From NCBI GenBank assembly GCA_035494535.1, contig DATJGZ010000082.1:1-56282 (forward strand): a stretch of 56,282 bases of DNA. The letters are read 5' to 3'. Position numbers and translations under genes: made by a program. Under the pieces are notes generated by a model, which saw only the letters and a program-made list of their open reading frames with translations, was not told the DNA's origin and ran no database searches. The stretch is from Patescibacteria group bacterium. Its GTDB lineage: Bacteria; Pseudomonadota; Alphaproteobacteria; Micavibrionales; Micavibrionaceae. Positions 10,843 through 35,834 of the stretch are shown piece after piece (the stretch's first letter is position 1; every line of letters starts with the position of its first letter).

Positions 10843-10868
10843 AGTGTGACAAAAGAAATTACGACAAT
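10843..10868 (+). promoter_or_regulatory. Island motif copy: AGTGTGACAAAAGAAATTACGACAAT
   Basis: TGTGACAAA-N5-TTACGAC, pointing at the ATG at 10952. Confidence 0.5.
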
Positions 10869-10871
10869 CAA

Positions 10872-10897
10872 ACATTATTCGAATGAATTATTGCACC
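10872..10897 (-). promoter_or_regulatory. Island motif copy on the minus strand (degenerate): GGTGCAATAATTCATTCGAATAATGT
   Basis: TGCAATAAT (an extended -10 form) points at the minus-strand gene that starts at 10832. It sits back-to-back with the plus-strand copy at 10843. Confidence 0.4.
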
Positions 10898-10951
10898 GTC
10901 TGGGGCTAAAATCATGTCCTGATTTGCATTTGTGAAGAGGGCAGGGGACCG

Positions 10952-11566: not shown

Positions 11567-11574
11567 TGCAGTCT

Positions 11575-11600
11575 GATGTGATAATGTTTTTTACGGCATT
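11575..11600 (+). promoter_or_regulatory. Island motif copy: GATGTGATAATGTTTTTTACGGCATT
   Basis: Starts 8 nt after the stop at 11564-11566. TGTGATAAT at 11577-11585, N5, TTACG. Confidence 0.6.
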
Positions 11601-11742
11601 TTTATTCTCAATCGTCTCATTACACGTCAGAGCAAGGTGTTAAAGGCTTATCTCCGTGTAATTCCCTCAAAACAAATACGGCAAATATTCCATAAATTAT
11701 CAAGGGATATTTAATGATGATGTATCAAATTTTCATTATGGG

Positions 11743-14397: not shown

Positions 14398-14398
14398 A

Positions 14399-14914
14399 AT
14401 GGAGGCGCCTATGGAGAATAAATCAACATGCCATCAAATATGTTTACTAATTTTTGTGGGCATGCTTACAGCATTTTGGAATTCGTCATCATTTGCAGGT
14501 GAGGGGCCTGACTTCATAGGAGATAAAGATCAGGCGGTAATTACAAATATGAAATTCGCTCGCGATCATATCACTGGCGCACATCTTTTAGATGGATCCA
14601 ATGTCCGTCCCGAGACAGCAGAAGAATTAAAAAATCCCGTTATCCCGATTGAAGAAGGCAAACGGGTTGTTAACCGCGGTATTTTGACAGCATTAGCAAA
14701 GTACTGTGGTTTAGACGGACAAAATGACAGCTATCTCCCATTCATGAGCCACGAGCGCCAAAGCAAGCTGTGGTCTGACAAGCAACTCGCCTATATAGGC
14801 TTGTTGCACGGAATAACACAGGCAGAGTTTTATGATCTTTTTAAAAAGAAAGGAAACTGTTCCGATTTGCAAAAGCAACGAGTCCAAACTTTTCTCGATA
14901 ATATTGATAAATAA
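14399..14914 (+). CDS. Hypothetical secreted or anchored protein (171 aa)
   Basis: Starts 1 nt after the upstream stop. Hydrophobic N-terminus ICLLIFVGMLTAFWNSSSFA. Confidence 0.6.
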   Translation: MEAPMENKSTCHQICLLIFVGMLTAFWNSSSFAGEGPDFIGDKDQAVITNMKFARDHITGAHLLDGSNVRPETAEELKNPVIPIEEGKRVVNRGILTALAKYCGLDGQNDSYLPFMSHERQSKLWSDKQLAYIGLLHGITQAEFYDLFKKKGNCSDLQKQRVQTFLDNIDK

Positions 14915-14962
14915 GAAGTTGCAGCTGATACCTGAGAAAACTCAACTTCTGGATTTCGACGG

Positions 14963-14984
14963 GATGACGTTTTTTACGACAAAT
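14963..14984 (+). promoter_or_regulatory. Island motif copy (degenerate, -10 half missing): GATGACGTTTTTTACGACAAAT
   Basis: Keeps GATG and GTTTTTTACGAC. A GATAATAT half-site lies 59 nt upstream (14897-14904), across a hairpin. Confidence 0.35.
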
Positions 14985-14995
14985 GGGGGCTGGAC

Positions 14996-15865
14996 ATGAA
15001 ATTGATCAGATTGACGATACTAATTGCGGCGCTGCTCTTACCGGCGATCATCTCCCCAGTTGAAGCATCCCCTCTTGTGCCTAAAGTCGGCGATATCTAC
15101 GAAATTACCCGAACCAAGGATTCTGCCCAGAAGGGCACCGGATCCAACAGCAGCTCACACGATAAGGATACCATCATCGAGCGCGTAGTGGGACTACGCC
15201 CGGACGGCCTGGAACTGGAATACGACCTGCCGGAAACAACTAAGGCAGCCGAGAGAGCCAGCCAGTGGCAATTTCCCGCTAGGATTTTTAAACCAACTAA
15301 TGGACCGGCGGAGTTGCTCAACCGTCCTGAGCTCGAGGCAAGGGTGGCCGCGTGGCTCAAATCTGCCGGGGTTTCACGTGCCCTCTGCGGACATTGGTAT
15401 TTTACATGGAATGCGTTTCAAGTCGAATGCGATCCTCAATCAGTAATAAAAACGGTCAAATCATTCGAGCTGGGACCCGGTAATCTACATGAAGGGGATT
15501 CCTATCAAGACCCCGACGCAAGCAGGCCAGGAAAATTATCTAAAAAGGATTCCAAGCCGGACAAGGTGATTTTCTCCACCGAGATGCCAGTTGATCCCGA
15601 CGCCGTTCGTCGCGCTCGGGCGGAATCTGACGTTGTTGTAGGGGAAATAATGCGTGAGCCGGTCACTCTTGAGGCTGCGCTCAGTAAACACGCCAAGGAA
15701 ACTGTTTCAGGTACGATCTCCATCGACGTCGAAACAGGTTCTACTGGCAATGTGCGTCGACGGACAAAGGTATCAAAGGTGAACATTCAAGGTCCGGGCA
15801 CCCAGTCAGAGACAGACGCAACGACAGAAACTTTGGAACGCCGACTAATTTCACCAAGGCAATAA
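14996..15865 (+). CDS. Hypothetical secreted protein (289 aa)
   Basis: Signal peptide MKLIRLTILIAALLLPAIISPVEA. No family recognised. Confidence 0.7.
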   Translation: MKLIRLTILIAALLLPAIISPVEASPLVPKVGDIYEITRTKDSAQKGTGSNSSSHDKDTIIERVVGLRPDGLELEYDLPETTKAAERASQWQFPARIFKPTNGPAELLNRPELEARVAAWLKSAGVSRALCGHWYFTWNAFQVECDPQSVIKTVKSFELGPGNLHEGDSYQDPDASRPGKLSKKDSKPDKVIFSTEMPVDPDAVRRARAESDVVVGEIMREPVTLEAALSKHAKETVSGTISIDVETGSTGNVRRRTKVSKVNIQGPGTQSETDATTETLERRLISPRQ

Positions 15866-15894
15866 CAATCACCCTGTAATTGTAAGTCGAAAAT

Positions 15895-18800
15895 ATGTCA
15901 GATAATTCCGGGATTCAGAAAGGCGCAAAACCGAAAAAGCAATTTTCCAAGATACTTATTTTAAGTCTTTCATTTCTAATGCTGGTATTAGCCAGTCTTG
16001 GCCTGGTTAATCGATATTCTTCCAAGCCGCTGCCTTTTCCACTGCTAAAGGTTTTAGCACATCTTGGAGTTGCGGACGCCCAGAGGGCGATAGGCGAAAT
16101 GTACCTGTATGGATTTGGGGTCGATAAGGCTTTTAATGTCTACCCGATAAACAGCGTGAGCATAAACTATCCGGAAGCCTTCAAATGGTTTCAGTTAGCA
16201 ACAAGGAATGGAAACCTCCGCGGCGAGAGCAGGCTCGCGCTAATGTATGCTGGTGGCAAAGGTATCCCGGCAAACGTGGCCGAAGCGGTACGCCTTTGGC
16301 ATGACGGTGCTGATAAGGGCTATTCCCTGGCGCAATACAATCTCGGCGTCATGTACGCGAAGGGCGAGGGCGTTCCTCAAGATTATAACGAGGCAAGGAA
16401 ATGGTATACGAAGGCTGCTGAACAGAATCAGCCCCTTGCCGAAATGCAGCTTGGCCAGATTTATGATAATGGCTGGGGTACGAAGCGGGATTACAGCGAG
16501 GCCATGAAATGGTATCGCAAGGCCGCTCAACAGGGTGTGCCGGGTGCCCAATATCTTCTGGGGTATATGTACGACCATGCTAACGGCGTGGAACAGGATA
16601 ACGCCCAAGCAAGAGATTGGTATCAGAAAGCCGCACAAAATGGCGAGGAAGCCGCCCAGTTCAATCTTGGCATTCTTTACGAGACCGGAAGAGGCGGTGC
16701 CAAGGACTATGAAGAGGCCGCTAAATTATATAGTGCGGCCGCCGCGCAAGGCGTGGCCGACGCACAATTCAACCTTGGCGTATTTTATCAACTGGGCCGC
16801 GGCGTCAAGAAGGATTACGCTGTGGCCATGGACTGGTTTCAAAGAGCGGCAGCTCAGGGGCTCTGGCAGGCCAAATACAACATCGGCATGTTGTATTACA
16901 CCGGTAGTGGCGTAAAAACCGATTACCAAGAGGCTGCAAAGTGGTTCCGCGAAGCGGCTGGCGACGAATGGGCATCTGATGCGCAATACGCCCTTGGGTT
17001 GCTTTATATTAAAGGGCGCGGTGTTCCCCAAGATTACACGGCTGCTGCGCACTTCCTCCAACAGGCCGTCGATCATGGTGACAAACAGGCACAAAAATTA
17101 CTGCCTGAAGTTAATGAAATCATCAAAATAACCCCTAAAGATGACGCTGAAGCAGAGGTGGGCGGCCTTGATAAGGCAATCGAACATGGCAAAGCCGGTG
17201 AATATAAACTGATCGTCTATGAGAATTTGGTATTCAACAAAATAAACGACCACATGTCTGCCGGCGGACTCAATCATTCTGCGTTCGACGTTGACTGCGA
17301 TTATTTCAATTTTATTGAGAACCAAAAGAAAATCACCCGAATATGGAGCGATCCTGACACATTTCCCGAGACACTGTTAAAGCAGGAAGCGACATACAAT
17401 TTGACTCTGGCGCTCCTGCCCGATTTTCCCTATCCACATTTGTGCCATGTAAAAGATTCCCCGGAAGCGACTCGGGCCGTGGAAAAAATCCTTTCACGTC
17501 TCGGCATATCCCGCGGCGAATATGATGCGAGACGGCTAGCCGTCGAGAATTCATCGATTTTTACGGCATCCTTTTTCGGCCACATTGATGCAATTAGAAA
17601 ACACATTGCTGATCTAAATCAGGTCGACGAATTTCATCTTACTGCTCTTAAATACGCTTATATGGGCCAGCAGTTGGATGCCTTCAGGTTCCTTCTCGAT
17701 CATGGTGCCAATACCGGTAGCAACGCATCGTTGTTGCATTCGAAACCTGCTCTGGTCGGTTTCCAGGACAATGAAAACCTGTCGACCTGGCTTCTGCTTC
17801 CGATCCACTACCCGAGCAGCCGCCCATTTTTTGATCTTCTTCTGCAGTCCAAGCCTAAGCTGGATAAGCAAGGTATGAGTTTTGTTGTCAGGTATGCCGA
17901 ACCGGATCTTCTTGTTAAGCTTTTGGACTTAGGAGCCCCACTGCCTCGAATGCTGGACACAGACTTTCGCAGACCCCAAGCATTTGAAATCATAAAAACG
18001 CTTGTGAGTAGGGGGGCGTCAATTGCAAAGGAAGAAAATCCGAGCGACTTTATTGGCGGTCCTACTCAGTCTTTAGCCTGTGCAGCAATCATGGCCGGGC
18101 GTAACGAGATTCTAAAGTATCTGCTTGAACATGGGGCATCGCCAAATGGCTCGGCAAACCACATTCCCTTGTTTTGTGCGACGGAGGGCATCGACCTCAT
18201 CCAAAAGGGTCGAAACTATGAGATGGGTCCCCCCGTTCCTATAAGTTTAGATACGTTGGCCATTCTTCTAGATGCCGGCGCCGACCCAACACTTAAGGAC
18301 AGGAAGGGACATCATCTCCTTGAAAGCCTCTTGAACCCGAATGAACGGGCAAAAGTAGAGAAATTCCTGGCGGATCGGCATATAGATCTAATGGCGTTGG
18401 CTGCGGAGAAGGAAAAGAAAATAGCCGCCACAATTCGCTCGATGCCGATCGAAGACAAAGCGCGACAATGCACGTTGTTTAAATATTCCTCATATTGGTA
18501 TCTAGACTACGTCATTCCGGAACAATATCCGGAGGATCCCAAAAGGTTCTTCTCACGCAATTTTGACGAAGCGATCAGGCTCTGCCGTGAGGCAAAAGAA
18601 GCAGGAAATGCCGACGCTATAAAGTATCTTCCAACACTCCTCCAAAGAAAGGCCGAAATTATTATAGATACGCGCGATACAGCACACTATCCTGAAGCAA
18701 TATCTTTATATCGCGAAGCAGCTGAAACGGGATATCGCCCTGCAATTAGAGGACTTGCGGGATGCTATATGAGTGATCGATGCGGAATGAAAGAGGATTT

Positions 18801-18945
18801 TAAAGAAGCATATTTCTGGCAATTTTTGGATAATGAAAACCAAACCTATTATTTCGCCGCGACTAAACTGACGCCGGCTGACATAGATGTGGAGCAGAAA
18901 CGGGTGGCCGTATGGAAAAACTCGCACCCGAAAGTTCACGACTGA
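15895..18945 (+). CDS. Membrane-anchored Sel1-repeat / ankyrin-repeat fusion protein (1016 aa)
   Basis: TM helix ILILSLSFLMLVLASLGLV. About nine consecutive Sel1 units. Central ankyrin-like units (LTALKYAYMGQQLDAFRFLLDHGANT, ACAAIMAGRNEILKYLLEHGASPN, LAILLDAGADPTLKDRKGHHLL). C-terminal Sel1 unit with an EAYFW cap. Confidence 0.9.
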   Translation: MSDNSGIQKGAKPKKQFSKILILSLSFLMLVLASLGLVNRYSSKPLPFPLLKVLAHLGVADAQRAIGEMYLYGFGVDKAFNVYPINSVSINYPEAFKWFQLATRNGNLRGESRLALMYAGGKGIPANVAEAVRLWHDGADKGYSLAQYNLGVMYAKGEGVPQDYNEARKWYTKAAEQNQPLAEMQLGQIYDNGWGTKRDYSEAMKWYRKAAQQGVPGAQYLLGYMYDHANGVEQDNAQARDWYQKAAQNGEEAAQFNLGILYETGRGGAKDYEEAAKLYSAAAAQGVADAQFNLGVFYQLGRGVKKDYAVAMDWFQRAAAQGLWQAKYNIGMLYYTGSGVKTDYQEAAKWFREAAGDEWASDAQYALGLLYIKGRGVPQDYTAAAHFLQQAVDHGDKQAQKLLPEVNEIIKITPKDDAEAEVGGLDKAIEHGKAGEYKLIVYENLVFNKINDHMSAGGLNHSAFDVDCDYFNFIENQKKITRIWSDPDTFPETLLKQEATYNLTLALLPDFPYPHLCHVKDSPEATRAVEKILSRLGISRGEYDARRLAVENSSIFTASFFGHIDAIRKHIADLNQVDEFHLTALKYAYMGQQLDAFRFLLDHGANTGSNASLLHSKPALVGFQDNENLSTWLLLPIHYPSSRPFFDLLLQSKPKLDKQGMSFVVRYAEPDLLVKLLDLGAPLPRMLDTDFRRPQAFEIIKTLVSRGASIAKEENPSDFIGGPTQSLACAAIMAGRNEILKYLLEHGASPNGSANHIPLFCATEGIDLIQKGRNYEMGPPVPISLDTLAILLDAGADPTLKDRKGHHLLESLLNPNERAKVEKFLADRHIDLMALAAEKEKKIAATIRSMPIEDKARQCTLFKYSSYWYLDYVIPEQYPEDPKRFFSRNFDEAIRLCREAKEAGNADAIKYLPTLLQRKAEIIIDTRDTAHYPEAISLYREAAETGYRPAIRGLAGCYMSDRCGMKEDFKEAYFWQFLDNENQTYYFAATKLTPADIDVEQKRVAVWKNSHPKVHD

Positions 18946-18953
18946 ATGTGCCC

Positions 18954-18979
18954 AATGTGATAATATCTTTTATGAATAT
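18954..18979 (+). promoter_or_regulatory. Island motif copy: AATGTGATAATATCTTTTATGAATAT
   Basis: Starts 8 nt after the stop at 18943-18945. TGTGATAAT at 18956-18964. The next start codon is at 18980. Confidence 0.6.
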
Positions 18980-19489
18980 ATGAAAGATTCCGTAGCCGAA
19001 CGTTTTCGACTAGCAGTTTATTTACTCATCGCCTGCGGTGTCATTTGGCTTGGTAAAGTTATCTTTCACACATTTGTATCACCGGCAACGCCTCGCACGA
19101 TCGGGGAAAAAACTGAGCAATGCGATTTTGCTCTTCAATACACTGCCTTTGAGGCATTTAGTCTGTACATCAATAGGGAAGGGGCGTACACGTCGAAGGA
19201 TTTTAAAGAAGCGTTCGGATGGTGCGAACAAGCTGCCAACGCAGGAAGTCCCTTGGCGCAGGCTACATTGGCGGAGCTCTACGATATGAGTTCGCAGACC
19301 GGCGGAGTACCAAAGGACGATGCAGAAGCATATTTTTGGCTGTCATTGGCGCAAAAATCCAATCCTGCAGTGATCCCAAAAGTAACTAATTTGACTATAG
19401 GATATCTTCGAAAGCAGCTTACAAAGGATCAGATCGCAATTGTTGACCGTCGAGTACAAAATTGGAAGCCAGTCAGAAACGCGATGTGA
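18980..19489 (+). CDS. Membrane-anchored Sel1-repeat protein (169 aa)
   Basis: I chose the ATG at 18980 (MKDSVAERFRLAVYLLIACGVIWLGK) because the ORF-track start at 18887 overlaps the upstream gene. Contains a Sel1 unit and an EAYFW...LTKDQI...W cap. Confidence 0.75.
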   Translation: MKDSVAERFRLAVYLLIACGVIWLGKVIFHTFVSPATPRTIGEKTEQCDFALQYTAFEAFSLYINREGAYTSKDFKEAFGWCEQAANAGSPLAQATLAELYDMSSQTGGVPKDDAEAYFWLSLAQKSNPAVIPKVTNLTIGYLRKQLTKDQIAIVDRRVQNWKPVRNAM

Positions 19490-19508
19490 TAATAACTATT
19501 ACGACTAT
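19483..19508 (+). promoter_or_regulatory. Island motif copy: GATGTGATAATAACTATTACGACTAT
   Basis: Overlaps the TGA stop (19487-19489) of the upstream gene. TGTGATAAT at 19485-19493. The next ATG is at 19511. Confidence 0.6.
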
Positions 19509-19510
19509 AG

Positions 19511-19795
19511 ATGGAAACCAAAAATCAAAAGCAGACTAAAGAGCCTTTGCCTTTATCGACGCAGATTGTACTCGGTCTGGTACTTGGCGGATTAGCTTTC
19601 TTTACGTACCAGATGCTCCGTCTACGGCCTGTTCAGGTTCGAAGCGATGATCCTCCATGTCTCTACTGGGTCGGCAAGGTTGGAGCCAACTGCAAACAAA
19701 CTAGAACCGGTCAATGTCAGCACTGGCAGGATGAGCTTAATAAATGCCTAGAGAGCGTGAAAATCCGCGAAGAGAAACGTAACGACACTCGTTGA
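19511..19795 (+). CDS. Small membrane protein with a Cys-containing C-terminal tail (94 aa)
   Basis: TM helix IVLGLVLGGLAFFTY. Four Cys in the tail. No SD. Confidence 0.5.
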   Translation: METKNQKQTKEPLPLSTQIVLGLVLGGLAFFTYQMLRLRPVQVRSDDPPCLYWVGKVGANCKQTRTGQCQHWQDELNKCLESVKIREEKRNDTR

Positions 19796-19833
19796 TAGGC
19801 ATTGCTAACGGGGCAAACATAGCTTGGAATGCC

Positions 19834-19857
19834 GATGGATAATGTATCTTCTGAATA
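19834..19857 (+). promoter_or_regulatory. Island motif copy (degenerate): GATGGATAATGTATCTTCTGAATA
   Basis: Last copy, at the right island edge. A TTTTACGATATGAAT half-site follows at 19880-19894. Confidence 0.4.
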
Positions 19858-19907
19858 CTTCATCCGAATACCTCACTCATTTTACGATATGAATTAATTC
19901 CTATTCG

Positions 19908-19916
19908 TGCTATAAT
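19908..19916 (+). promoter_or_regulatory. Perfect extended -10 element TGCTATAAT with no ORF downstream
   Basis: Exact TGnTATAAT. Downstream are only an imperfect hairpin (19939-19963), a T7 run (19974-19980) and non-coding sequence. Confidence 0.3.
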
Positions 19917-20280
19917 CCGCATTGGTGATTTACATGGACCGGAATGGGCTGAATGCCATCCGGGCCGGAGGAATTTTTTTGCATCCGCACGAAAGGGCGG
20001 TGACGGAAATTTGAGCAAACGAACTGATATAAAACGCTGCTGCGGCGACCGGAACGGGAAAAACGCACATCGTGGCCCGGCGCCAATTAACTGCTTGAAT
20101 TTTCAGGAGCGAGAGGCAGCGGATTTTTTAAATTTCGACGAACGAACTGAACAGAATTTTTTGCGCCAGCGGAAAATGCACATTCTCAATTTTGTCATTC
20201 TGAGGCCGGAGGCCGAAGAATCTCTCTCTCAAAAAAAGGAAACTCCTCGCTTCGCTGAAGGTAACGCTGTTATCCGCACA

Positions 20281-21178: not shown

Positions 21179-23008
21179 TTGGAACAGGAAGGACAAAATC
21201 GGGAAAACACGGTGGAGCCCAGGCCGCTTCTGGTCTATGACGGCGATTGCGGATTCTGCAAGTACTGGGTCAATTACTGGGACCGGATGACGCAAGGTCG
21301 CGTGGCTTACGAGCCTTTTCAGACGGCTGCCGCCCGCTATCCGGCCATCCCCGAAAATGCCTTCAAAAAAGCGGTGCAGTACATCACGCCCGACGGCCAT
21401 TACGCCAGCGCCGCCGAGGCCAGTTTTCTCGTGCTCAGTCACGCGCCGGGGAAGGGCCACTGGCTGGCGCTCTACCGCCGCTTTCCGCTTTATGCGTGGT
21501 TTTCCGAACGCGTCTATGAATTCGTCTCGCGCCGTCGCGGCCTGTTCTATGCCATCAGCAAGTTCCTGTGGGGGCCGGACCTGCGCCCGCCCCGGCATGA
21601 GATGATGTCGTGGCTGTTCCTGCGGCTGTTCGGCCTGATCGCGCTCTCGGCTTTTATGTCGTTCGGCGTGCAGGCGATGGGGCTGATCGGCAGCGGCGGC
21701 ATTACGCCGCTGCACGATTTTGTCTCGGCGGTGACCGAGCAGATCGGCGGCGCGCGCTGGCTGCTGGCGCCGATGGTGTTCTGGTGGAACGACAGCGACG
21801 CGGCGATTCAGGCCGTGTGCTGGGCCGGCGCGGCGTTCTCGGTGCTGTTGACGCTGGGCGCGCTGCCGCGCCTGAGCCTGTTTATGATCTACGCGCTCTA
21901 TCTCTCGCTGGTCTATGGCGGCCAGACTTTCATGACCTATCAATGGGACATCTTCATCGTCGAGACCGCGTTCGCGGCGCTGCTGCTGGCGTTCGTCACG
22001 ACGCCGGGATTGTGGATTTTGCGCTGGCTGCTCTTCCGTTTCATGTTCCTGTCAGGCTGCGTGAAGCTTCTGAGCATGGATCCGAACTGGTGGAATTTGC
22101 ACGCGCTCGAATATCACTTCCTGACCCAGCCGCTGCCAACGCCGCTGGCGTGGTACGCGGCGCAGATGCCGCCGGGCGCGCTGCATGTCCTGTGCGGGGT
22201 CGTGTTCGTCGTGGAAATGCTGTTGCCCTTCCTGATCTTCGCGCCGCGGCGGCTGCGGTTCGCGGCGGCCGTCGGCTTCATGGGGCTCGAGATTGCCATT
22301 TTCCTGACCGGCAACTACAACTGGTTCAACCTGCAAACGATGCTGCTGTGCCTGCCGCTGCTGGACGATCAGGCGCTGGAATCCCTAATGCCGCGCAAAT
22401 TTTTTGCCTTTGTCTCCGCGCATGCGCCCGTGCGGCAGCCGAACATATATACGCGGCGCATCGTGCTCGGCATTTCGGTGCTGATCATATTTTGCTCGCT
22501 GGTGCAGACGAGCATGCGCTTCGGCGAGCGTCCGCCGGGTGCGTTCATGGCGATCAACCACATGGTCGGGCCGTTGCAAATCGCGAATACCTACGGGCTG
22601 TTTGCCGTGATGACGACGGCGCGCAACGAGATCGTGGTCGAGGGATCGGATGACGGGCAGAACTGGAAGGAATATGAATTCAAGTACAAACCGGGCGACC
22701 TGACGCGCCGGCCGCCCTGGAACATTCCCCACCAGCCGCGGCTTGATTGGCAGATGTGGTTCGCGGCGCTCGAGGATCCGCGCGATCTGCCATGGTTCCG
22801 CCAGTTTCTGCGGCGGCTGCTCAAAAACGCGCCCGCCGTTACCGCGCTGCTGGCGAAGAATCCATTTCCCGATCATCCGCCGCGTTTCGTGCGGGCGCAA
22901 TTCTACGACTACACTTTCGCGACGCCGGCCGAGCACGCCAAGGGAATCTGGTGGGACCGGCAGTACCTGAAGGTGTGGTTCCCGATTGCGCAGTTGCGGC
23001 ATGACTGA
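21179..23008 (+). CDS. DCC1-like thiol-disulfide oxidoreductase fused to a lipase maturation factor (LMF) family membrane domain
   Basis: N-terminus is LLVYDGDCGFCKYWVNYW (DUF393/DCC). The C-terminal part, NTYGLFAVMTTARNEIVVEGSDDGQNWKEYEFKYKPGDLTRRPPWNIPHQPRLDWQMWFAAL, matches LMF. The start is uncertain: TTG at 21179 or GTG at 21212. Confidence 0.85.
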   Translation: MEQEGQNRENTVEPRPLLVYDGDCGFCKYWVNYWDRMTQGRVAYEPFQTAAARYPAIPENAFKKAVQYITPDGHYASAAEASFLVLSHAPGKGHWLALYRRFPLYAWFSERVYEFVSRRRGLFYAISKFLWGPDLRPPRHEMMSWLFLRLFGLIALSAFMSFGVQAMGLIGSGGITPLHDFVSAVTEQIGGARWLLAPMVFWWNDSDAAIQAVCWAGAAFSVLLTLGALPRLSLFMIYALYLSLVYGGQTFMTYQWDIFIVETAFAALLLAFVTTPGLWILRWLLFRFMFLSGCVKLLSMDPNWWNLHALEYHFLTQPLPTPLAWYAAQMPPGALHVLCGVVFVVEMLLPFLIFAPRRLRFAAAVGFMGLEIAIFLTGNYNWFNLQTMLLCLPLLDDQALESLMPRKFFAFVSAHAPVRQPNIYTRRIVLGISVLIIFCSLVQTSMRFGERPPGAFMAINHMVGPLQIANTYGLFAVMTTARNEIVVEGSDDGQNWKEYEFKYKPGDLTRRPPWNIPHQPRLDWQMWFAALEDPRDLPWFRQFLRRLLKNAPAVTALLAKNPFPDHPPRFVRAQFYDYTFATPAEHAKGIWWDRQYLKVWFPIAQLRHD

Positions 23009-27993: not shown

Positions 27994-29205
27994 TTGGCCG
28001 ACGCTGAAGACGATAAAGAGAATATGCCAGGGCTTGATGACACCGATGCCCAGGATCTTCAGGCATCGACTTTCCAGTATGGCGTGGTAAAGACCCAGCA
28101 GCAGTTGATGATGAAGAACCCGCTTATGAACGGGGATCTTTATGATGAGGGATCGATCGACGAGGAAGAGCTTGATCGAAATCACAACGGCATCCCAGAC
28201 GACGAGGAGGATCTTGTCGGAACGTTTCTGACGGGCACCGTCAAGGATATGGTCGACGCCCTGCATGACGCCGACTGGAATTTTGACCAAATAGACAAGG
28301 TCGTCAGTCCGCATGATCAGGACATTACGGATCCGACATCGAAGTATAATCACGCGCTCAAGTATGTGCAGGAGCGCGCGAAGACCGATCCGGAGGCGCA
28401 GGCGCTTTTGGACAACTACAACAAGACGACGGATGCGGTTAAATCTGCCATCGAGAATGCCCGGCAGTCGCAGAGCCCGGACAGCTTCCTGGACCTGGAG
28501 ATTGCGGAACTGGATCGAAGCCTCGCCAAATCCGAAATCGCAAAGTATGAGGCCGCCGCGAACGGTCACAGTGACGAGTTGGATCGTGCCCACCGCTGGC
28601 ATGACGGTGCGCAGGCGACCAGGGACCAACTCGCGAAAATAAGAGAGCTTCCGCCCGACCAACAGCAGGCTGCGCTGGAAAAGCTTGCGCAGGACAATCA
28701 AAAGTCGAGGGTCGCGCATGAATGGGCGAGATTCAAAACCGGTGATCTTTCTAAATGGACCAAAGAGAATAACAGCCATATCGACGGGGACAGCCCTGAT
28801 TATCCTAACAGCCCCGATTATCGTGGCAGTAACAACTATCAATCCGGCGGCGCCAGGAACAACGCTTCACCCAGCGGCTCTCCGTCGTACCTGAGTTCAT
28901 CCTTTGGGAATTGGGCGATGCCGTGGAGTTCTTCGCAGCCCGCGGCCAAGCCCGTAGCTCACGAAAATAAGACGGATAATTCATGGAGTCTGACTTCGTT
29001 GTTCGGAAGTCTGGCGATGCCGTGGAGTACGTCGTCGGCACCGGCAGCTAAGCCTGCGGTAGACACCAAAAAGCAGGACGATTCCTGGAGCTTGACCTCG
29101 ATCTTCTCCAACTGGTCGTGGCCGTGGAGCGGCGCATCCAAAGCTTCAACGCCGTCATCAGACGCGAAAAAGCAGACGACCGCGCCTACGACGTCCGGCC
29201 CTTAA
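27994..29205 (+). CDS. Acidic orphan protein with a C-terminal PW-motif tandem repeat (403 aa)
   Basis: TTG at 27994 (alternative ATG at 28024). Highly acidic N-terminal half, no signal peptide, three C-terminal repeats. The overlapping minus-strand ORF 27928-28842 looks like a shadow. Confidence 0.7.
   Translation: MADAEDDKENMPGLDDTDAQDLQASTFQYGVVKTQQQLMMKNPLMNGDLYDEGSIDEEELDRNHNGIPDDEEDLVGTFLTGTVKDMVDALHDADWNFDQIDKVVSPHDQDITDPTSKYNHALKYVQERAKTDPEAQALLDNYNKTTDAVKSAIENARQSQSPDSFLDLEIAELDRSLAKSEIAKYEAAANGHSDELDRAHRWHDGAQATRDQLAKIRELPPDQQQAALEKLAQDNQKSRVAHEWARFKTGDLSKWTKENNSHIDGDSPDYPNSPDYRGSNNYQSGGARNNASPSGSPSYLSSSFGNWAMPWSSSQPAAKPVAHENKTDNSWSLTSLFGSLAMPWSTSSAPAAKPAVDTKKQDDSWSLTSIFSNWSWPWSGASKASTPSSDAKKQTTAPTTSGP
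28885..29184 (+). repeat. Three tandem 33-34-codon repeats inside the CDS (SWSLTSLFGSLAMPWS-type)
   Basis: SYLSSSFGNWAMPWSSSQPAAKPVAHENKTDN / SWSLTSLFGSLAMPWSTSSAPAAKPAVDTKKQDD / SWSLTSIFSNWSWPWSGASKASTPSSDAKKQTT. The 16-mer GGCGATGCCGTGGAGT occurs at both 28914 and 29013. Confidence 0.8.
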
Positions 29206-29218
29206 GAACGTTTAGATT

Positions 29219-29707
29219 TTATTTCCTGTCCGAGCCATCCAGCAGTTTCGGCAGAATTAGAAAATCGGACAGACCGACGACGAACAACGCTCCCCCGAAA
29301 ACTTTTGTGGTGAGTTCGTCCAGGTGCGCCGGACCGTAGTCGACACCGCCCGCATGAAAGGCCAGAAAGCTTCCGGCAACCATGAAAAATAAGCCCGCGA
29401 TGCGCAGGGCGTTCAATACCTGTTCGCTTACCTTCTTAGGATATCGGGTTGAATCGGCCTTTTCGTCCACCACCAGTGATGTATGCTCGGCCTTTTCCGT
29501 TCGGTCCTTCTTCGCCACAACATCGTCGCCAGCGGGCAGATGGGACCTTATTGCCCGATAGACCGCGAAAAAGCCGAGCAGCATCATCAGACCTTCAAAT
29601 GTGTGGAAGGGCCATAGCGACTCGGGCTTTACGTACGGCGCCGCGCTCGCCCAGGAGGCGTCGGAGAAAAACAGCATAATGAGGCTGAAAAACAGGAGCA
29701 TGACCAT
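29219..29707 (-). CDS. Hypothetical membrane protein (162 aa, about 4 TM helices)
   Basis: Last gene of a minus-strand unit. Has hydrophobic segments and a basic central loop. Confidence 0.65.
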   Translation of the reverse strand: MVMLLFFSLIMLFFSDASWASAAPYVKPESLWPFHTFEGLMMLLGFFAVYRAIRSHLPAGDDVVAKKDRTEKAEHTSLVVDEKADSTRYPKKVSEQVLNALRIAGLFFMVAGSFLAFHAGGVDYGPAHLDELTTKVFGGALFVVGLSDFLILPKLLDGSDRK

Positions 29708-29760
29708 AAGCGGTAATTTTACGCCATTGTCAGCTTTTCGAAAAGCTCGTTTGCGAAGGG

Positions 29761-31026
29761 CTATACGGCGGGCGCCGAATTGTTTTTATAGGCCACATTT
29801 TCGGTGGGAGCCGAAGAAACGGGCGGTGTAGAAGTCGGAGGAATTAGCCCCGGAACCGCGTTCTTGTCGGCCTCCCTTGCTGCATTCCACGCACCGGTAA
29901 GTCGAAACCTGCCATTATCCGCATCTCCGCGGACTGATGCGCCTAAGGTGTTGTCGCCCGCCACGAGCGTCCCTCCGTAACGGACGGTGGAATCGGTCCG
30001 ATAATATTGGGTCAGTGTCGGAAGCGTCTGGGCGAGTTGCGTCTGGGTGGGCTCGGTGGGGGCTTCCGTGTCATTGGCGGCTTCCGCCTTCTTGTTCTGG
30101 CCCGGTTTGACGTTTTTGTCGACGACCTCCCGGCGATAGGCGCCGGCATACTGTTCCATGAATTGCTTTACTTCAGGCGTGCTGCCGATGGCATTGTCCT
30201 TCAGCAGGCCATCTACGGTATCAATGTATTTGCGGGGATCTTTTTTCTGTAGATCCTTGGCCTGGTCGACCGTAATGCCCAGTTTGTTGGCGACTCCTTG
30301 ATCCATCTCGGCCTTGAATTTCCCAGCGGCGTCCGCTTGGGCCGGCGTGACGTTAATCGGGCCATTCTGCGCTATCATAAGGCCGGTCGCATGTGTGGGG
30401 TCCTCCGCGGCGCCTAGCGCGCGGGCATCGATTAACGTCTGCGCCATATCTTCCCGGCCCTGTTTCCGGAGGAATTCAATGGCAGCGCGGTCTGATTCCG
30501 CCTCGCGTTGTATGGTCAGGCGCAGTTGCTCGGGAGCCGGAAGATTCGGATCGACGTCGGCCTGCTTTGCATGAGTTCCCTCGTGAATTCCGATCGCCTT
30601 GTCCCACATCCAGTCAGGCCCAGGCGGCGGCTTGAGCTGGTCACGCGGGATATGCGCGATGACCGGCATGATCTTGTTCTTATTGTCGAGCGACTTGTCC
30701 TGAGTATTGACAATCGCTATTTTCTGGCCGTTAAAATTTGCGTTTATTTCGAATGGTCCTCGCGTTGTCGACAGCGCTACCATCTCGGCGAGATCCGCAT
30801 CCGACAAGTAGTCCGGATCTCCCGGCTTTCCTGTTATCCCCGGCATTTGTTTTTCAAGCGACTTGCGCAGATGGGCCACATTCTTGGCCATATCCGGATT
30901 CTTCAGCTCGTTGGGATTGATATATACCGGCTTGACGTCTTTCGGCAGAGCCTCGCGAACGCCGGCCTTGTAATCATTTATGGCGAGATGCTCAACCTGT
31001 TTGACGAGACTTACGAGATCATCCAC
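29761..31026 (-). CDS. Orphan HExxH protein (HEGTHAKQ), putative metallopeptidase
   Basis: 421 aa. Contains WMWDKAIGIHEGTHAKQ. No signal peptide. Pro-rich C-terminal tail. Confidence 0.75.
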   Translation of the reverse strand: MDDLVSLVKQVEHLAINDYKAGVREALPKDVKPVYINPNELKNPDMAKNVAHLRKSLEKQMPGITGKPGDPDYLSDADLAEMVALSTTRGPFEINANFNGQKIAIVNTQDKSLDNKNKIMPVIAHIPRDQLKPPPGPDWMWDKAIGIHEGTHAKQADVDPNLPAPEQLRLTIQREAESDRAAIEFLRKQGREDMAQTLIDARALGAAEDPTHATGLMIAQNGPINVTPAQADAAGKFKAEMDQGVANKLGITVDQAKDLQKKDPRKYIDTVDGLLKDNAIGSTPEVKQFMEQYAGAYRREVVDKNVKPGQNKKAEAANDTEAPTEPTQTQLAQTLPTLTQYYRTDSTVRYGGTLVAGDNTLGASVRGDADNGRFRLTGAWNAAREADKNAVPGLIPPTSTPPVSSAPTENVAYKNNSAPAV

Positions 31027-31037
31027 GTCCGCCGCTC

Positions 31038-31271
31038 CTACTTGTCCGGTTTCGGCACGCCGACCGTAGGAGTCACGACCTGGCGTGAGAACAAACTTTT
31101 CTTTCCGGGCTCCGGATTGACGACAATGCTGCCATCGCCAGCCTTGATAAAAGAATTATTCAAGTCTGGGGTGGGTCGGTCTGTGGATGTTGCCGGAGCC
31201 GCGGGTGCGGGCGCAGTGGTTCTAGAAGCCGGATCGGATTCCGTCTTAAAGGTGTTTGAAACGTCGACCAT
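31038..31271 (-). CDS. Small Pro-rich protein (77 aa), paralog of the 31374 gene product
   Basis: GGGGG RBS lies 5-6 nt upstream, and TATAAT lies further upstream on the minus strand. DGSIVVNPEPGKK...VVTPTVGVPKPDK parallels DGTFVVQKEPPK...VIVPTTTPSPDKK. Confidence 0.5.
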   Translation of the reverse strand: MVDVSNTFKTESDPASRTTAPAPAAPATSTDRPTPDLNNSFIKAGDGSIVVNPEPGKKSLFSRQVVTPTVGVPKPDK

Positions 31272-31373
31272 TATGCCCCCGAAAATATAAGATCAATTAT
31301 AGAGGGTAAACGAATATGAAAAGTTAACGCGCGCTTTAACGCGCGCGGACTCATGTTAACAATTCGTTAATCT

Positions 31374-31670
31374 TTATTTTTTGTCCGGGGATGGCGTCGT
31401 TGTGGGCACAATGACCTGCGGGTGGATAACAAGTCCCTTTTTCCCGTCAGCACTTTTCGGGGCATCCTTCGGCGGCTCTTTCTGAACAACGAAGGTGCCA
31501 TCCGCATTTTGGACAATCATCGGCGGTGTCGTGGTCGTAGAATCCGGCGCCTTCTCGGTCACCGGCGTTTTTGGCGGAGGTGTCTTATCGGCAGCCATTA
31601 GACCTCCCGGAGCGGCGCACGCCGTCAGAAAAGCAAAAAGGGGTGATAGCAGTCGCGCCGACAGTTTCAT
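31374..31670 (-). CDS. Small Pro/Thr-rich lipoprotein (98 aa)
   Basis: The ATG at 31670 gives MKLSARLLSPLFAFLTAC with a lipobox (LTAC). Confidence 0.65.
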   Translation of the reverse strand: MKLSARLLSPLFAFLTACAAPGGLMAADKTPPPKTPVTEKAPDSTTTTPPMIVQNADGTFVVQKEPPKDAPKSADGKKGLVIHPQVIVPTTTPSPDKK

Positions 31671-31842
31671 TTTTTCAAGTCCGTTCAAATGCCTACTTCC
31701 TAATTATAATCAAAATATAGGGATATTGCAAAAAGGCCAGCCTGCGGTGCGGGGCGTTGGTAGACATATTTAATGGACATTAAGAAAAACAGCGTGCTAG
31801 CGTCCCGCTAAACAAGAAACCGACAGGGACGACGACGATTTC

Positions 31843-32826
31843 ATGGACGTTAAGAACGTTCGCCAGCCCGGACAGTGGAAACGGGACAATCTGGAATTAT
31901 GGCGCGCCGGCCATTCATCGGAGCGGCAGGAGAAGGACCGTCAGCAGCTTGCGGAGCTTTTCAATCTCGCAGCGGAAGTGCCGGTGCTCAAGGATGCGCT
32001 CGACTGGGCGAGAGATCATGACATTGAATTCATCGTCGATCACACGACCAGAGCGGCCGGCTATTATTTTCCCGGTACAGGCGTCGTCGGTATATCCCGC
32101 GCATACATGGGTAACACGCGTTACATCGCCGGGGTGCTGGTCCATGAAATACGCCACGCATGGCAGGATTACTACGGCATGATCCCGACGGCCGGCAAGA
32201 ATTTTGCCGATTATTTCATGCGTGAGGCATTGATCGAGGCGGACGCCACGGCGCATCAGGATCTCGCGATGCGGCAATATGATTTATCGCGCCGGATCGC
32301 CCGTCTGGCCGATTTGGATGAGGAAAGGGCGCCGGAACGTAAATTGGGTGCGCGCAAGATCCAACGGGAACGACTCGGGGAAAAGCTTGCGCAGTCAGCA
32401 CAGGATACGGCCGCAATTTGGGAAAGTTTCGGGGAGTGGTTCAAATCATGGAAACCGGGGGTTTACGGCGACGCGGCCATTCGCCGCTTCGCAATTACGC
32501 TGGGTGTTTCCGGCATCGAGCCAAAAGACTACAAATTTGAATACGATCCTTATGACGGGCAGGGGCCGCCTTCACGCGAAGGAATAGACGCCTCGCGTGC
32601 GGAGAATCTTCGTGAGCTGGGCAAGTCATTCAACGACGTGAATTACTTTGACGCCGACGGGAAGCGCAGTCTCAGCCTCGAATTCGCAACGGCCGCGCGG
32701 GCGTCTTCATTTTACAGCGAAAATAATGTTCCCGATCCTCTAGTGGAAGAGGTGCGGCGCCGCTGGCTGCAGCTAGAACATCAGGCCGGGCATGATGTGA
32801 CGATTTGTCCGCCGTACAATTTCTGA
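31843..32826 (+). CDS. Orphan HExxH protein (HEIRHAWQ), putative metallopeptidase (possibly DUF6782-like)
   Basis: 327 aa. Contains IAGVLVHEIRHAWQDYYG, then EALIEADATAHQ (a candidate third ligand Glu). No signal peptide. Confidence 0.8.
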   Translation: MDVKNVRQPGQWKRDNLELWRAGHSSERQEKDRQQLAELFNLAAEVPVLKDALDWARDHDIEFIVDHTTRAAGYYFPGTGVVGISRAYMGNTRYIAGVLVHEIRHAWQDYYGMIPTAGKNFADYFMREALIEADATAHQDLAMRQYDLSRRIARLADLDEERAPERKLGARKIQRERLGEKLAQSAQDTAAIWESFGEWFKSWKPGVYGDAAIRRFAITLGVSGIEPKDYKFEYDPYDGQGPPSREGIDASRAENLRELGKSFNDVNYFDADGKRSLSLEFATAARASSFYSENNVPDPLVEEVRRRWLQLEHQAGHDVTICPPYNF

Positions 32827-33846
32827 TTAAAAGCCGATAAACGGTTTCGGCGCGATTTGCAGCGTTTGCTGGGCCGGTTGGTGTCTTTCGTGAATTTCGC
32901 GCATGATCATATCGTAAGTCCTTATCCCGGCGTTTACACGATCCTTGTCGGCTTTCTCGTGCGTAAAATCGAAGCCGTAAACGCTGCCTTCCTTCGTCAC
33001 AATCTCCCTGCCATTGACGAAGTCTGCGAATGAGAGATTCTCAGCGGGGCGGCGGAATGTGAACGAGTCTTCTGTCCCTTCTACGATGCCTGTGACCATG
33101 CCGTTTTTCTCGGTCACGATGAAGGCGTGGCCTCCGGGGGTGTCTTCATAAATTCCGAATTCGACCATGCCGCTCACGTAAAAATACTTTGATGTCTGAT
33201 CGGCTTTAAGATTGTGGTCGGCGACACGCTGCATGAGAATGATTTTGACGATCGACATGCCTTCGCAGTCGAATTCCTTCTTGTGGGTGCCGTCTTTCAT
33301 GTCCTGGCTGATGTCGTTCAGGTGGCGCGTGCGCGGCACCGGATGATCGCCGGCCTCGGTGCGGTACATGTCGAGCCCTGGGGTGCTGTGGACGATCGCC
33401 GATACGATGTCCGCCACATGGCTGTCCCAATAGCGGCGGTCGGCATCTGTCCAAGTAGCCTTATCTTTCAAAGCCTGGAGGTCGGGACGTGAATCGATCT
33501 CGGCCTGCACCTGATGCTCCATGTTGTGGAAGGCCTGCATGAAGGCGTCGTTCCTGCCGAAATCGATATCCATGTTGCCGGGAAAAATATTCCCAGGGCT
33601 GATGACGGCGTGAATGGGTATCGATCCTGTGTCCGAAATATACGAACCTGCGATGACCGTCGAGTACTGGCCGTCCGGATCGCGGTGCGTCATGATTTTT
33701 CTATTTTCGGGCGCGACACCGCGGTCGGCAACCTCGTTAAAGGCGTGCCGTAACGCGTCGCCATTCGAGAAAATCGCGGCGGGTAGCAGGGCAAGCGCGA
33801 GAGACACAATGGTCCTCTGCGATGCCTTGGAGGAAAATATTTTCAT
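32827..33846 (-). CDS. Secreted protein with a transglutaminase/papain-like Cys...His signature
   Basis: Signal-like N-terminus MKIFSSKASQRTIVSLALALLPAAIFS. FDCEGMSIV, then GGHAFIVTE, resemble the Cys and His motifs of the transglutaminase-like fold. Confidence 0.75.
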   Translation of the reverse strand: MKIFSSKASQRTIVSLALALLPAAIFSNGDALRHAFNEVADRGVAPENRKIMTHRDPDGQYSTVIAGSYISDTGSIPIHAVISPGNIFPGNMDIDFGRNDAFMQAFHNMEHQVQAEIDSRPDLQALKDKATWTDADRRYWDSHVADIVSAIVHSTPGLDMYRTEAGDHPVPRTRHLNDISQDMKDGTHKKEFDCEGMSIVKIILMQRVADHNLKADQTSKYFYVSGMVEFGIYEDTPGGHAFIVTEKNGMVTGIVEGTEDSFTFRRPAENLSFADFVNGREIVTKEGSVYGFDFTHEKADKDRVNAGIRTYDMIMREIHERHQPAQQTLQIAPKPFIGF

Positions 33847-33959: not shown

Positions 33960-35834
33960 TCATGCAGGAGGGTGCTTATTGACGAGGTAAATCTGAATTG
34001 CTCCGGCGCTCGGAACGCGCGTCAACCAAGCAGGAACGCGGCCGTCTAAGATCCGCGCCGCAAAGTAGTTATGCGTCGGCGATATGCTGTCCCAGAAAAT
34101 CCTTTGCGCCGGGCAAACCATGACGATTCCTACATCGTATTTTTTGACAATCTTATACGCGACGTTATCGTCGGGAGCGATAAATATCCGGTAGGCGGCG
34201 CCGATGCCCTCTTCATCACGATGGTAGTGGCCGGCCAACGCCCAATGTTGCGTGCGATAAATAATTTCGGACCCTTCATCCACGTAAGCGGCAATCATTT
34301 TCGGCGCCGGAATAGCATTCAGGGCTGACGCTGCATCTTTTACACTGCATCGTTCCTGCATGAGGCCCCGTCTTACGTGCATGGCCGGCGCCGGATGATT
34401 TGTTCCGCCGGAAGTCGTCAACGTGACGACGCCGAAAAGACTACTGAAGGCGAACAGCGAGATTTCAATAGCGAGCCTTTGCCGGCGGCCGAGGGACCGA
34501 AAGCCCGTCCACGCGCGCGCGGCTAGCGCTGTCAGCTGTCGAAAAATAAGATTTAGAAGCCACACTATCGGCGCGACCGAAAGCGCCTGCGTAAAACCTA
34601 AGGTGCGGAACTGCCAGAATGCCAGCGCTCCGCCGCAAGCCAGCACCGTTACAAGCCCGATCCACCAGAGACGGCGCGCAGTTTCAATCCGTATTGCCAG
34701 CAACGCGCCAAACAATGCCAGAGCCACCGGTAACAGCATAAATAGTTCGGAGCCTTTGTCCGCTTTCGTCACTGCAAAAATAGGCTGGGCCTCCGCGACG
34801 CGGTTGCGCCAAGCCATGCGGACAAGCGGATCGTGAATGTCGTAGATGTCGTGGAAGCAAACGGGTGAAAGCTTGTAAATGATAATGAATATCCCGAGCG
34901 CCAGTAACTCCGCCACGGCGAACCGCCGGGCAATATTGCTCTTCCACGAAGGCGGCATAAGGTATATCCCGCCCCAAAAAGCGCCGACGGCCGCGGCGAA
35001 GGACAAATATGTGGGCGATATGGTGTCGCATTGGGGAACCAGAAAACGTTCCGGGGGCACCAGGATGATAAACCATACGGCTGTTGCCAGAGTGACTGAA
35101 AGCCCGAGGCGCAGCGCTGCCAATTCATAATCGGAGCCTCGGATCAGGAAATGGATTCCGATCACAAGCACGCCGAGTGCAAACCATGGAACGATGTCGG
35201 CGCCGATGCCAAGGCCGGTGGCGAAAAGTATTCCTGTCAGGACGGGCCAGCGGGCTTCGGTGGGACGAAGACTAACCCGAGCAAGGCAGGCGTAGGATGC
35301 GACTGTCAGCACGATCTGCCAGTCGTGGTGCGTTACGCGGCCGAGGCAGAACTGGTACAGCATTACCGTGAGAAAAGGCATCACGCACAGCGTGAAAAAC
35401 GTCTTTATCGCGGTGGGCTTGTCCTCGCCAGCGGCGCTCCTGACATACCATAGCGAAACGAACACGAGGGCCATCAATGCCATCGCCGGGAATACGGTCG
35501 CGGTCCACAGGGCCGCTGTCTGGCGGGTAAAAAACAGCTGGAAGAACAGCATGAGCAGATAGAGAGGTCCGTCAATCAGACGCGACCAGCCGTTTTCGAC
35601 GCTGCCGCCCGGACCGAGCCGGGGTTGTATCCAGGAAGGATAGTGCCGTCCGTCGAGCAGGTCGAAAATCCGGCTCATGCGCAGGTAGTCATCCGCGTCC
35701 GCCAGATATCCGCTTTGCAGCGGGGACCCAAGAAAGGCCTTTATTAAAAGCAGGATTGCGGCCCAACCCGTAAATGCCATCCAGACCCAAACCGGCGGGA
35801 GGAAAGTTTGCCTTGATGAAGATAGGGACCGCAT
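33960..35834 (-). CDS. Polytopic membrane protein, possible GT-C-type glycosyltransferase (GtrC/ArnT-like role)
   Basis: 624 aa, at least 12 predicted TM segments. First loop has an acidic motif YLADADDYLRMSRI. Soluble C-terminal domain. The function is inferred, not recognised. Confidence 0.7.
   Translation of the reverse strand: MRSLSSSRQTFLPPVWVWMAFTGWAAILLLIKAFLGSPLQSGYLADADDYLRMSRIFDLLDGRHYPSWIQPRLGPGGSVENGWSRLIDGPLYLLMLFFQLFFTRQTAALWTATVFPAMALMALVFVSLWYVRSAAGEDKPTAIKTFFTLCVMPFLTVMLYQFCLGRVTHHDWQIVLTVASYACLARVSLRPTEARWPVLTGILFATGLGIGADIVPWFALGVLVIGIHFLIRGSDYELAALRLGLSVTLATAVWFIILVPPERFLVPQCDTISPTYLSFAAAVGAFWGGIYLMPPSWKSNIARRFAVAELLALGIFIIIYKLSPVCFHDIYDIHDPLVRMAWRNRVAEAQPIFAVTKADKGSELFMLLPVALALFGALLAIRIETARRLWWIGLVTVLACGGALAFWQFRTLGFTQALSVAPIVWLLNLIFRQLTALAARAWTGFRSLGRRQRLAIEISLFAFSSLFGVVTLTTSGGTNHPAPAMHVRRGLMQERCSVKDAASALNAIPAPKMIAAYVDEGSEIIYRTQHWALAGHYHRDEEGIGAAYRIFIAPDDNVAYKIVKKYDVGIVMVCPAQRIFWDSISPTHNYFAARILDGRVPAWLTRVPSAGAIQIYLVNKHPPA

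Follow-up and report, generated by a model that had tools for sequence, protein, structure and literature searches.

Known effector-immunity and inhibitor pairs include the lipoprotein immunity genes upstream of Xanthomonas type IV secretion system (T4SS) effectors, the periplasmic immunity proteins against type VI secretion system (T6SS) amidases, AprA-AprI, and the Bdellovibrio self-protection protein Bd3460, which is encoded beside its secreted endopeptidase. Transglutaminase-/papain-like enzymes carry the motifs C-x-x-F-A, H-A-W and D-x-T. We analysed seven genes, named g1 to g7 in order of position, that occupy positions 27994-33846 of the contig DATJGZ010000082.1 (56,282 nucleotides, hereafter the window). 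An initial annotation had read them as one set of secreted effectors or toxins with partner or immunity proteins, or as one envelope-remodelling system. The supposed seven-gene effector cluster resolved into ordinary genome mosaicism: the stretch is a variable accessory chromosomal slot of an uncultured soil alphaproteobacterium, with at least two independent layers. The first layer, g1, g2, g6 and g7, is a lineage-specific backbone between epimerase and amylase-like genes; the second, g5-g4-g3, is a 2-kb cassette in the divergent g2/g6 intergenic region. The cassette was the only unit with linkage conserved in other genomic contexts and was therefore taken as the functional module. All seven open reading frames (ORFs) were found where they had been described:

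g1, 27994-29205, plus strand: 403 amino acids, isoelectric point (pI) 4.61, no Cys, no hydrophobic segment, no signal peptide; backbone
g2, 29219-29707, minus strand: 162 amino acids, four hydrophobic stretches, convergent with g1; backbone
g3, 29761-31026, minus strand: 421 amino acids, no signal peptide; cassette
g4, 31038-31271, minus strand: 77 amino acids, Pro-rich, one copy of a ~40-residue motif; cassette
g5, 31374-31688, minus strand: 104 amino acids, Pro-rich linker, lipobox LTAC with Ala at +2, one copy of the motif; cassette
g6, 31843-32826, plus strand: 327 amino acids, Pfam family PF20573 (DUF6782), no signal peptide; backbone
g7, 32827-33846, minus strand: 339 amino acids, N-terminal hydrophobic segment at residues 13-32, predicted to be exported; backbone

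The window was compared with three syntenic relatives, the loci L003 and L009 and one JGI contig, in which the flanking genes were 86-91% identical to those of the window at the amino-acid level. At the same site, g1, g2 and g7 were kept with identities of 50-62, 63-70 and 80-82%, respectively, and g6 was kept in two of the three (56-60%). None of the three contained g3, g4 or g5. The slot order was g1, g2, a 60-residue g6 remnant and g7 in L003; g1, a response regulator and a histidine kinase, g2, g6, a gene of 142 amino acids and g7 in L009; and g1-like, g2-like, DUF6782 and g7 in the JGI contig. The remnant in L003 (8475-8657) was 46% identical to g6 residues 257-323, the C-terminus of DUF6782, showing that g6 had been lost in that locus. 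The response regulator and hybrid histidine kinase between the g1 and g2 orthologs of L009 (5765-8652) indicate that the slot takes up unrelated insertions. Conserved co-occurrence of all seven genes was looked for in the relatives and was not found.

The backbone genes evolve faster than their flanks: the nonsynonymous divergence (dN) of g1, g2, g6 and g7 exceeded that of the flanking epimerase by a factor of 1.5 to 5. Their ratios of nonsynonymous to synonymous divergence (dN/dS) against the syntenic orthologs were 0.07-0.20 (dS was saturated and the ratios are rough), indicating that these four are real genes. The stretch 27994-33846, including g3-g5, recurred in near-identical form in several independent soil metagenomes, showing that it is no assembly artefact. 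About 85 bp directly upstream of g6 (31755-31842) aligned with L009, which puts the edge of the cassette near 31755; its junctions showed no direct repeats. The conserved block reads GACAT.AA.AAA.ACA.C.TG.TAGCGTCCC... and may be a regulatory element of the DUF6782 gene. The families of g1-g7 were found solely in one group of uncultured Alphaproteobacteria and are not widespread housekeeping families; the genomes that carry them are labelled Micavibrio sp., Rhodospirillales or Alphaproteobacteria in records of metagenome-assembled genomes (MAGs). None of the seven proteins matched PADLOC defence-system models at E <= 0.1, and Rfam gave no match on either strand. A look for public RNA sequencing runs as a source of expression evidence turned up none.

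The enzyme of the cassette was judged by its family. A word-indexed search returned a single homolog of g3, and an exhaustive profile search of 1.84 billion proteins brought the family to 172 representatives, with E <= 1e-10 for 132 of these. The catalytic domain spans approximately residues 1-310; a linker of low complexity comes next, and a degenerate motif lies towards the C-terminus. The features are:

30571-30585, minus strand: g3 HEGTH, residues 148-152
30502-30504, minus strand: g3 E175
~29845-29934, minus strand: degenerate copy of the C-terminal motif in g3

Among 46 diverse members, H148, E149, H152, E175 and R202 were invariant and D179 nearly so; the invariant HExxH is thus followed by a Glu 23 residues past the second His, the gluzincin arrangement. 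HExxH was present in 143 of 148 family members, whose median pI was 4.7, and an N-terminal hydrophobic signal in 1-3 of the 148, among which P0091 had a clear Sec signal. No Pfam domain or recognised trafficking domain was found in the 46 members, and g3 itself had no sequence relative in Pfam or PDB. By these comparisons g3 belongs to an undescribed, clade-restricted HExxH family.

The tails of the g3 family were hypervariable and of low complexity. The motif IGGVSA..FFA..ADP.LA.QR was carried by about 28 of 150 members, at a constant ~40 residues before the C-terminus irrespective of protein length, and could be a targeting or export signal. A longer form, ..GD.A.M.IGGVSA..FFA..ADP.LA.QR.., was seen in carriers that include P0088, P0093, P0095, P0098 and P0101. 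A trimeric-autotransporter-like nature of g3 was considered after residues 319-393 had weakly matched the AtaA anchor (E = 0.004). It was dropped: g3 has neither a signal peptide nor a terminal aromatic strand, the segment is absent from P0011, and the family's own C-terminal motif explains the AtaA match better. In the locus L040 (370-1990), a g3-family gene was broken over three reading frames, by pseudogenisation or by sequencing errors.

At each of the seven loci examined, one or two small genes immediately preceded the g3-family gene in the same orientation:

Window: g5 (lipoprotein), then g4 (signal-less paralog), upstream of g3
L041: 101-residue lipoprotein (z = 14.6 against g5), then a signal-less 100-residue paralog, upstream of the g3 homolog
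L039: g4-like ORF (z 6.7-7.3 against g4) upstream of the g3 homolog; the contig stops before any lipoprotein gene
L007: one 65-residue lipoprotein upstream of the g3-family gene
L042: one 105-residue lipoprotein upstream of the g3-family gene
L043: one 88-residue lipoprotein upstream of the g3-family gene
L044/L045: 154-residue lipoprotein with two motif units, among three g3 paralogs

A scan of metagenomes for g3-family loci with a second alignment returned only two short loci. The order of the window (lipoprotein, signal-less paralog, HExxH gene) was repeated exactly in L041, and the surroundings differed between loci: gyrA/recG in L041, and elsewhere an acyl-carrier/MBOAT cluster, hisG/RNase G, and SMODS/pirin. 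Six of the seven loci had a lipobox, with Ala or Thr at position +2. Under the E. coli sorting rule, the residue after the lipidated Cys sets lipoprotein targeting, and these residues therefore predict the outer membrane. In L044/L045 (526-6307), three g3 paralogs of 442, 463 and 768 amino acids stood in a row, the longest with two catalytic domains; the lipoprotein gene lay between the first and the second, and the chromosomal site was that of the single-copy L042.

In the window, g4 lies upstream of g3, ends 11 nt from it and leaves no room for a signal peptide. For g5, the signal peptide reads MKLSARLLSPLFAFLTAC and ends in a lipobox that fits the pattern [LVI][ASTVI][GAS]C; numbering from the TTG codon makes Cys24 the lipidated residue, and translation probably begins in fact at M7 (31670). 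Both proteins contain 14-15% Pro. Their Smith-Waterman score was 69 against 33.6 +/- 6.1 for shuffled sequences (z 5.6-5.8), a score that 0 of 2000 shuffles reached; g4 and g5 are true paralogs, and their earlier description as a Pro-rich pair with one lipoprotein was borne out. The shared ~40-residue motif is (D/E)G(S/T)F.(I/V)...P..G..(L/F).I..QV(V/I).PT. A hidden Markov model (HMM) of it matched g4 at E = 1.5e-17 and g5 at E = 2.8e-19; when run over all ORFs of the window and 45 loci, it matched partner proteins alone, in four loci, at E = 1e-16 to 1e-37. Two non-coding features accompany the pair:

31328-31347, minus strand: GC-rich hairpin followed by a T-run between g5 and g4, terminator- or attenuator-like by consensus scan only
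31703-31731, minus strand: sigma-70-like promoter match TTGCAA-17-TATAAT (10/12) just upstream of g5, by consensus scan

The hairpin bases form a 12-nt unit repeated 1.9 times in Tandem Repeats Finder and had no Rfam match. The promoter match is a pointer only, because such sites were no commoner in the region than in shuffled sequence.

We consider it an even call that this mosaic slot holds, in g5-g4-g3, an exported metallopeptidase kept in check or docked by its small partners. By its HEGxH and the Glu 23 residues past the second His, g3 would be a gluzincin-type zinc hydrolase. Made without a Sec signal, it would get to the envelope by a Sec-independent route, possibly through its C-terminal region. 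Micavibrio aeruginosavorus, a cultured relative, has type I and type II secretion and neither type III nor type IV (PMC3189940); type I secretion is the sole such Sec-independent system described in that species. The small proteins would offer the conserved ~40-residue motif as the part that binds the g3 enzyme, with g5 as an outer-membrane-type lipoprotein and g4 as its signal-less paralog, one on each side of the inner membrane. They may act as inhibitors or self-protection partners, or as docking partners. The acidity of the g3 family, its hypervariable tails and the conserved C-terminal motif in about 28 of 150 members are consistent with export.

Several points weigh against this proposal. 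The zincin fold of g3 is read from motifs alone, and we infer the activity and export of g3, as well as its binding to the partners, from sequence. An enzyme without a signal peptide and a lipoprotein partner are assumed to share a compartment. No match to the motif HMM was obtained for the lipoproteins of L007, L042 and L043. Secretion-system genes, which the initial annotation had suggested looking for, were found neither in the window nor in the related loci. The difference between the window and its relatives fits either an insertion of the cassette here or its loss in the relatives. A predatory host is only a possibility: the Micavibrio labels come from MAG records and, as reported, not all Micavibrionales are predators (PMC9933672).

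The alternative that survives best keeps g3 in the cytoplasm as a regulatory or housekeeping metallopeptidase, with the small proteins as substrates or precursors, their motif-bearing C-terminus being cleaved or matured, and not as inhibitors. Nearly all members of the g3 family lack a signal peptide, and the signal-less paralogs of g4 type would sit in the same compartment as the enzyme; moreover, the small proteins consist mostly of a low-complexity linker and a short motif ending in QVVxPT, a possible recognition or cleavage site. However, the partner is a lipoprotein at six of the seven loci and would be exported before meeting a cytoplasmic enzyme. Tandem expansion (the three paralogs of L044), hypervariable tails and a conserved near-C-terminal motif are more usual for exported proteins, and P0091 has its clear Sec signal. 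We regard this alternative as unlikely. Quite unlikely, in our judgement, is a far-reaching version of the exported-peptidase proposal, in which the cassette would protect Micavibrio-related bacteria from their own exported zinc peptidases, a new class that leaves the cytoplasm independently of Sec and is used against other cells. The motif ~40 residues from the C-terminus would then be a new export or targeting signal, with g4 neutralising the enzyme in the cytoplasm and g5 doing so as an envelope lipoprotein.

The second HExxH protein, g6, belongs to the backbone and could be placed in a family. It matched PF20573, annotated as a putative metallopeptidase, with 61.3 bits (cut-off 27, E = 1.1e-16), and 71 of its 75 homolog clusters were annotated with the same family; no mention of DUF6782 was found in the literature searched. 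Its motif residues are:

32143-32157, plus strand: g6 HEIRH, residues 101-105
32236-32238, plus strand: g6 E132

H101-H105 (HEIRH), W107, Q108, D109, E132, A133, D134 and A135 were invariant in 31 of 31 sequences. The AlphaFold2 (AF2) model, with a predicted local distance difference test (pLDDT) score of 91.6, placed strands at residues 62-66, 73-75 and 81-85, the HExxH in a helix at 92-110 and E132 in a helix at 121-160. The leading Foldseek matches were all zincins, the best at E 0.33 and none reaching E <= 0.001. These weak fold matches comprised M1 aminopeptidase/leukotriene A4 hydrolase (LTA4H), the minigluzincins selecase and jannalysin, IrrE/PprI and BlaR1; jannalysin was matched with a Foldseek probability of up to 0.91 and a TM-score of 0.47 over the target. 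Going by the model and the motif, g6 is a putative gluzincin. A distant paralogy of g3 and g6 was looked for by BLASTP and profile-profile comparison without result.

The genomic position of the DUF6782 family elsewhere is conserved. The gene adjoins thyA-folA in 20 of 22 loci of other genomes. In the same orientation, it precedes a permuted two-piece transfer-messenger RNA (tmRNA) gene in 16 of 23 loci, with a gap of often only 48-120 bp, and sspB, which encodes an adaptor for ssrA-tagged proteins, in 15 loci. This neighbourhood may reflect inherited synteny or a functional link to trans-translation. Because the position of the family is conserved among core genes, an intracellular peptidase is a more plausible role for g6 than an effector. 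No tmRNA gene occurs in the window, and g6 lies away from the usual thyA-folA/tmRNA/sspB surroundings. DUF6782 genes also stood in one to five tandem copies in L011-L033 (e.g., L014, 8464-11946), expansions that leave room for other roles of g6. Towards its C-terminus, a DNA-binding domain of homeodomain type was considered, as residues ~250-315 (32590-32790) weakly matched homeodomains (a tandem engrailed construct at E = 6e-4, single domains at 0.03-0.2). The region ends in a conserved basic stretch, E-V-R-K-R, and forms several short helices in the AF2 model, not the clean three-helix bundle of a homeodomain-like fold.

For g7 a Cys...His signature of transglutaminase/papain type in a secreted protein had been claimed. 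The residues concerned are:

33265-33267, minus strand: g7 C194, in FDC194EGMS
33127-33129, minus strand: g7 H240, in GGH240AFIV
33079-33081, minus strand: g7 E256

Only nine homolog clusters were found among 5.8 billion, and C194, H240 and E256 were invariant in all nine. The N-terminal hydrophobic segment and the Cys and His were confirmed, but no family could be attached by sequence or fold. None of the nine members matched a Pfam family at E <= 10, g7 had no NCBIfam or PDB sequence match, and Foldseek against PDB and BFVD gave no match at E <= 0.001. In the AF2 model (pLDDT 73.7, moderate), Cys194 sits at the N-terminus of a helix (194-212) and His240 beside a strand (242-247). We take g7 as an exported candidate thiol hydrolase with a putative Cys-His-Glu triad. 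In more distant lineages (L004, 4234-4902; L006, 6379-6966), the g7 homolog had a Sel1-like gene encoding ~200-220 amino acids 6-70 nt downstream in the same orientation, with metE nearby; other distant homologs adjoined an arylsulfotransferase gene. No Sel1-like partner follows g7 in the lineage of the window, and the Sel1-like gene beside the distant homologs showed no more than generic repeat similarity to a Sel1 protein of the window.

The initial annotation had assigned none of the seven products to a characterised family. This held for g1, g2 and g7, which match nothing; g6 belongs to PF20573, and g3, with its 172 representatives, is no orphan. The catalytic-looking residues it had singled out in g3, g6 and g7 were conserved in the homologs (46/46, 31/31 and 9/9). 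The possibility that g3, g6 and/or g7 are not peptidases was also weighed; they would be other metal- or thiol-dependent enzymes (such as glycan, lipid or peptidoglycan amidases serving the glycan genes) or non-catalytic binders. The slot lies inside a glycan-modification neighbourhood, neither g6 nor g7 has a significant structural match to a specific peptidase family, and the fold of g3 is likewise read from its motifs. However, linkage to glycan genes was not conserved for g3, g6 or the distant g7 homologs, HExxH with a Glu 23-27 residues past the second His on the next helix is the gluzincin signature, and the leading weak fold matches of g6 were all peptidases. This possibility appears very doubtful to us.

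That all seven genes form one co-functional system, whether a battery of secreted effectors or toxins plus immunity partners or an envelope-remodelling machine, is highly improbable, and the synteny comparison has already gone most of the way to refuting it. In its favour, the genes adjoin one another with little space between them, three have conserved catalytic motifs, the closest relatives keep g1, g2, g6 and g7 together, and the window has an island of Sel1- and ankyrin-repeat proteins typical of cell-interacting bacteria. Against it, all three syntenic relatives lack g3-g5 and one has also lost g6, DUF6782 in 28 other genomes has no other member of the seven within 10 kb, distant g7 homologs occur in unrelated contexts, the g3 cassette recurs alone elsewhere, and no secretion or trafficking domains were found. 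What stands of the earlier idea of an enzyme with a partner protein is g3 with g4/g5, adjacent in seven of seven loci, and not the seven genes as one set.

For the remaining backbone genes, g1 and g2, L003 and L009 carried orthologs in the corresponding position, with a dN/dS of 0.13-0.15 for g1, and a gene of 170 amino acids occupied the g2 position in the JGI contig. As described earlier, g1 is acidic and repetitive: its N-terminal region is conserved, and its C-terminus holds three Trp-rich repeats of the type SWSLTSLFGSLAMPWS (~28888-29127). These are protein-level repeats; Tandem Repeats Finder detected no repeat at the DNA level there. No Pfam, NCBIfam or PDB match was found for g1, and no Pfam or NCBIfam match for g2. 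The four hydrophobic stretches of g2 agree with its description as a protein with four transmembrane (TM) segments, but the first resembles a cleavable signal (..WASA|APYVKPE), so that a signal with three TM segments is as likely as four. Together with g3, g4 and g6, g1 makes up the products without a Sec signal that had been remarked on before.

Of the glycan genes said to flank the slot, those upstream were confirmed: on the 5' side, next to g1, lie genes for a GT2 protein, a methyltransferase, GtrA and two epimerases. The 3' neighbour of g7 (33960-35834, minus strand) encodes a polytopic membrane protein of 624 amino acids without a Pfam match, and an amylase-like gene follows it. In the relatives, one or two unrelated proteins of ~510 amino acids are encoded in place of the 624-residue protein, indicating that the position 3' of g7 is also variable. 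Farther upstream, positions 1-20000 of the window form a low-GC island (GC 0.42-0.53 against ~0.56 elsewhere) that encodes Sel1-repeat proteins of 1155, 884, 1016, 219 and 200 amino acids, one of them also with ankyrin repeats, as well as DUF1266 and DUF4034 proteins. Sel1/ankyrin repertoires are typical for bacteria interacting with other cells. In a protein of 609 amino acids encoded at 21179-23008 (plus strand), a DCC1-like thiol-disulfide oxidoreductase domain is joined to lipase maturation factor (LMF1) domains.

What makes the locus interesting is an undescribed HExxH family confined to one clade: its 172 representatives have no record in Pfam, PDB or the literature, and small lipoproteins sharing a short motif are its consistent partners. 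If these are indeed an exported peptidase and its inhibitor or immunity protein, they would be a new enzyme-partner family in a group that includes epibiotic predators, the killing machinery of which is poorly known. The DUF6782 genes, usually found directly upstream of tmRNA and sspB, are a lead on another uncharacterised family of putative peptidases.

Compared with the described families, g6 shares the invariant core HEIRHxWQD...EADA with the 30 aligned homologs of PF20573, a family that is itself uncharacterised and outside whose usual neighbourhood g6 lies. The modelled fold of g6 resembles the minimal and M1-type gluzincins (selecase, jannalysin, LTA4 hydrolase, cold aminopeptidase) in its small beta-sheet, its HExxH helix and the Glu ligand on the next helix, and g3 has their motif spacing; no fold match of g6 was significant, and sequence profiles tied neither g3 nor g6 to any peptidase family. 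In g7, a Cys at a helix start, a His by a strand 46 residues on and an acidic residue 16 further recall the transglutaminase-/papain-like superfamily, and its local motifs C-x-x-M-S, H-A-F and E-x-T resemble those of that superfamily; neither a sequence profile nor a fold match placed g7 within it. Unlike the known effector-immunity pairs, to which g3-g5 have no homology, the cassette has a second, signal-less partner paralog, and a link to a secretion system or trafficking domain was looked for in it and not found. The likeness is therefore architectural only, and membership is not claimed. It consists in a signal-less hydrolase gene beside a small partner gene in all seven loci, a partner with an envelope-targeting lipobox in six of them next to g4-type paralogs without a signal peptide, and a cassette that recurs in differing contexts and is sometimes tandemly multiplied.

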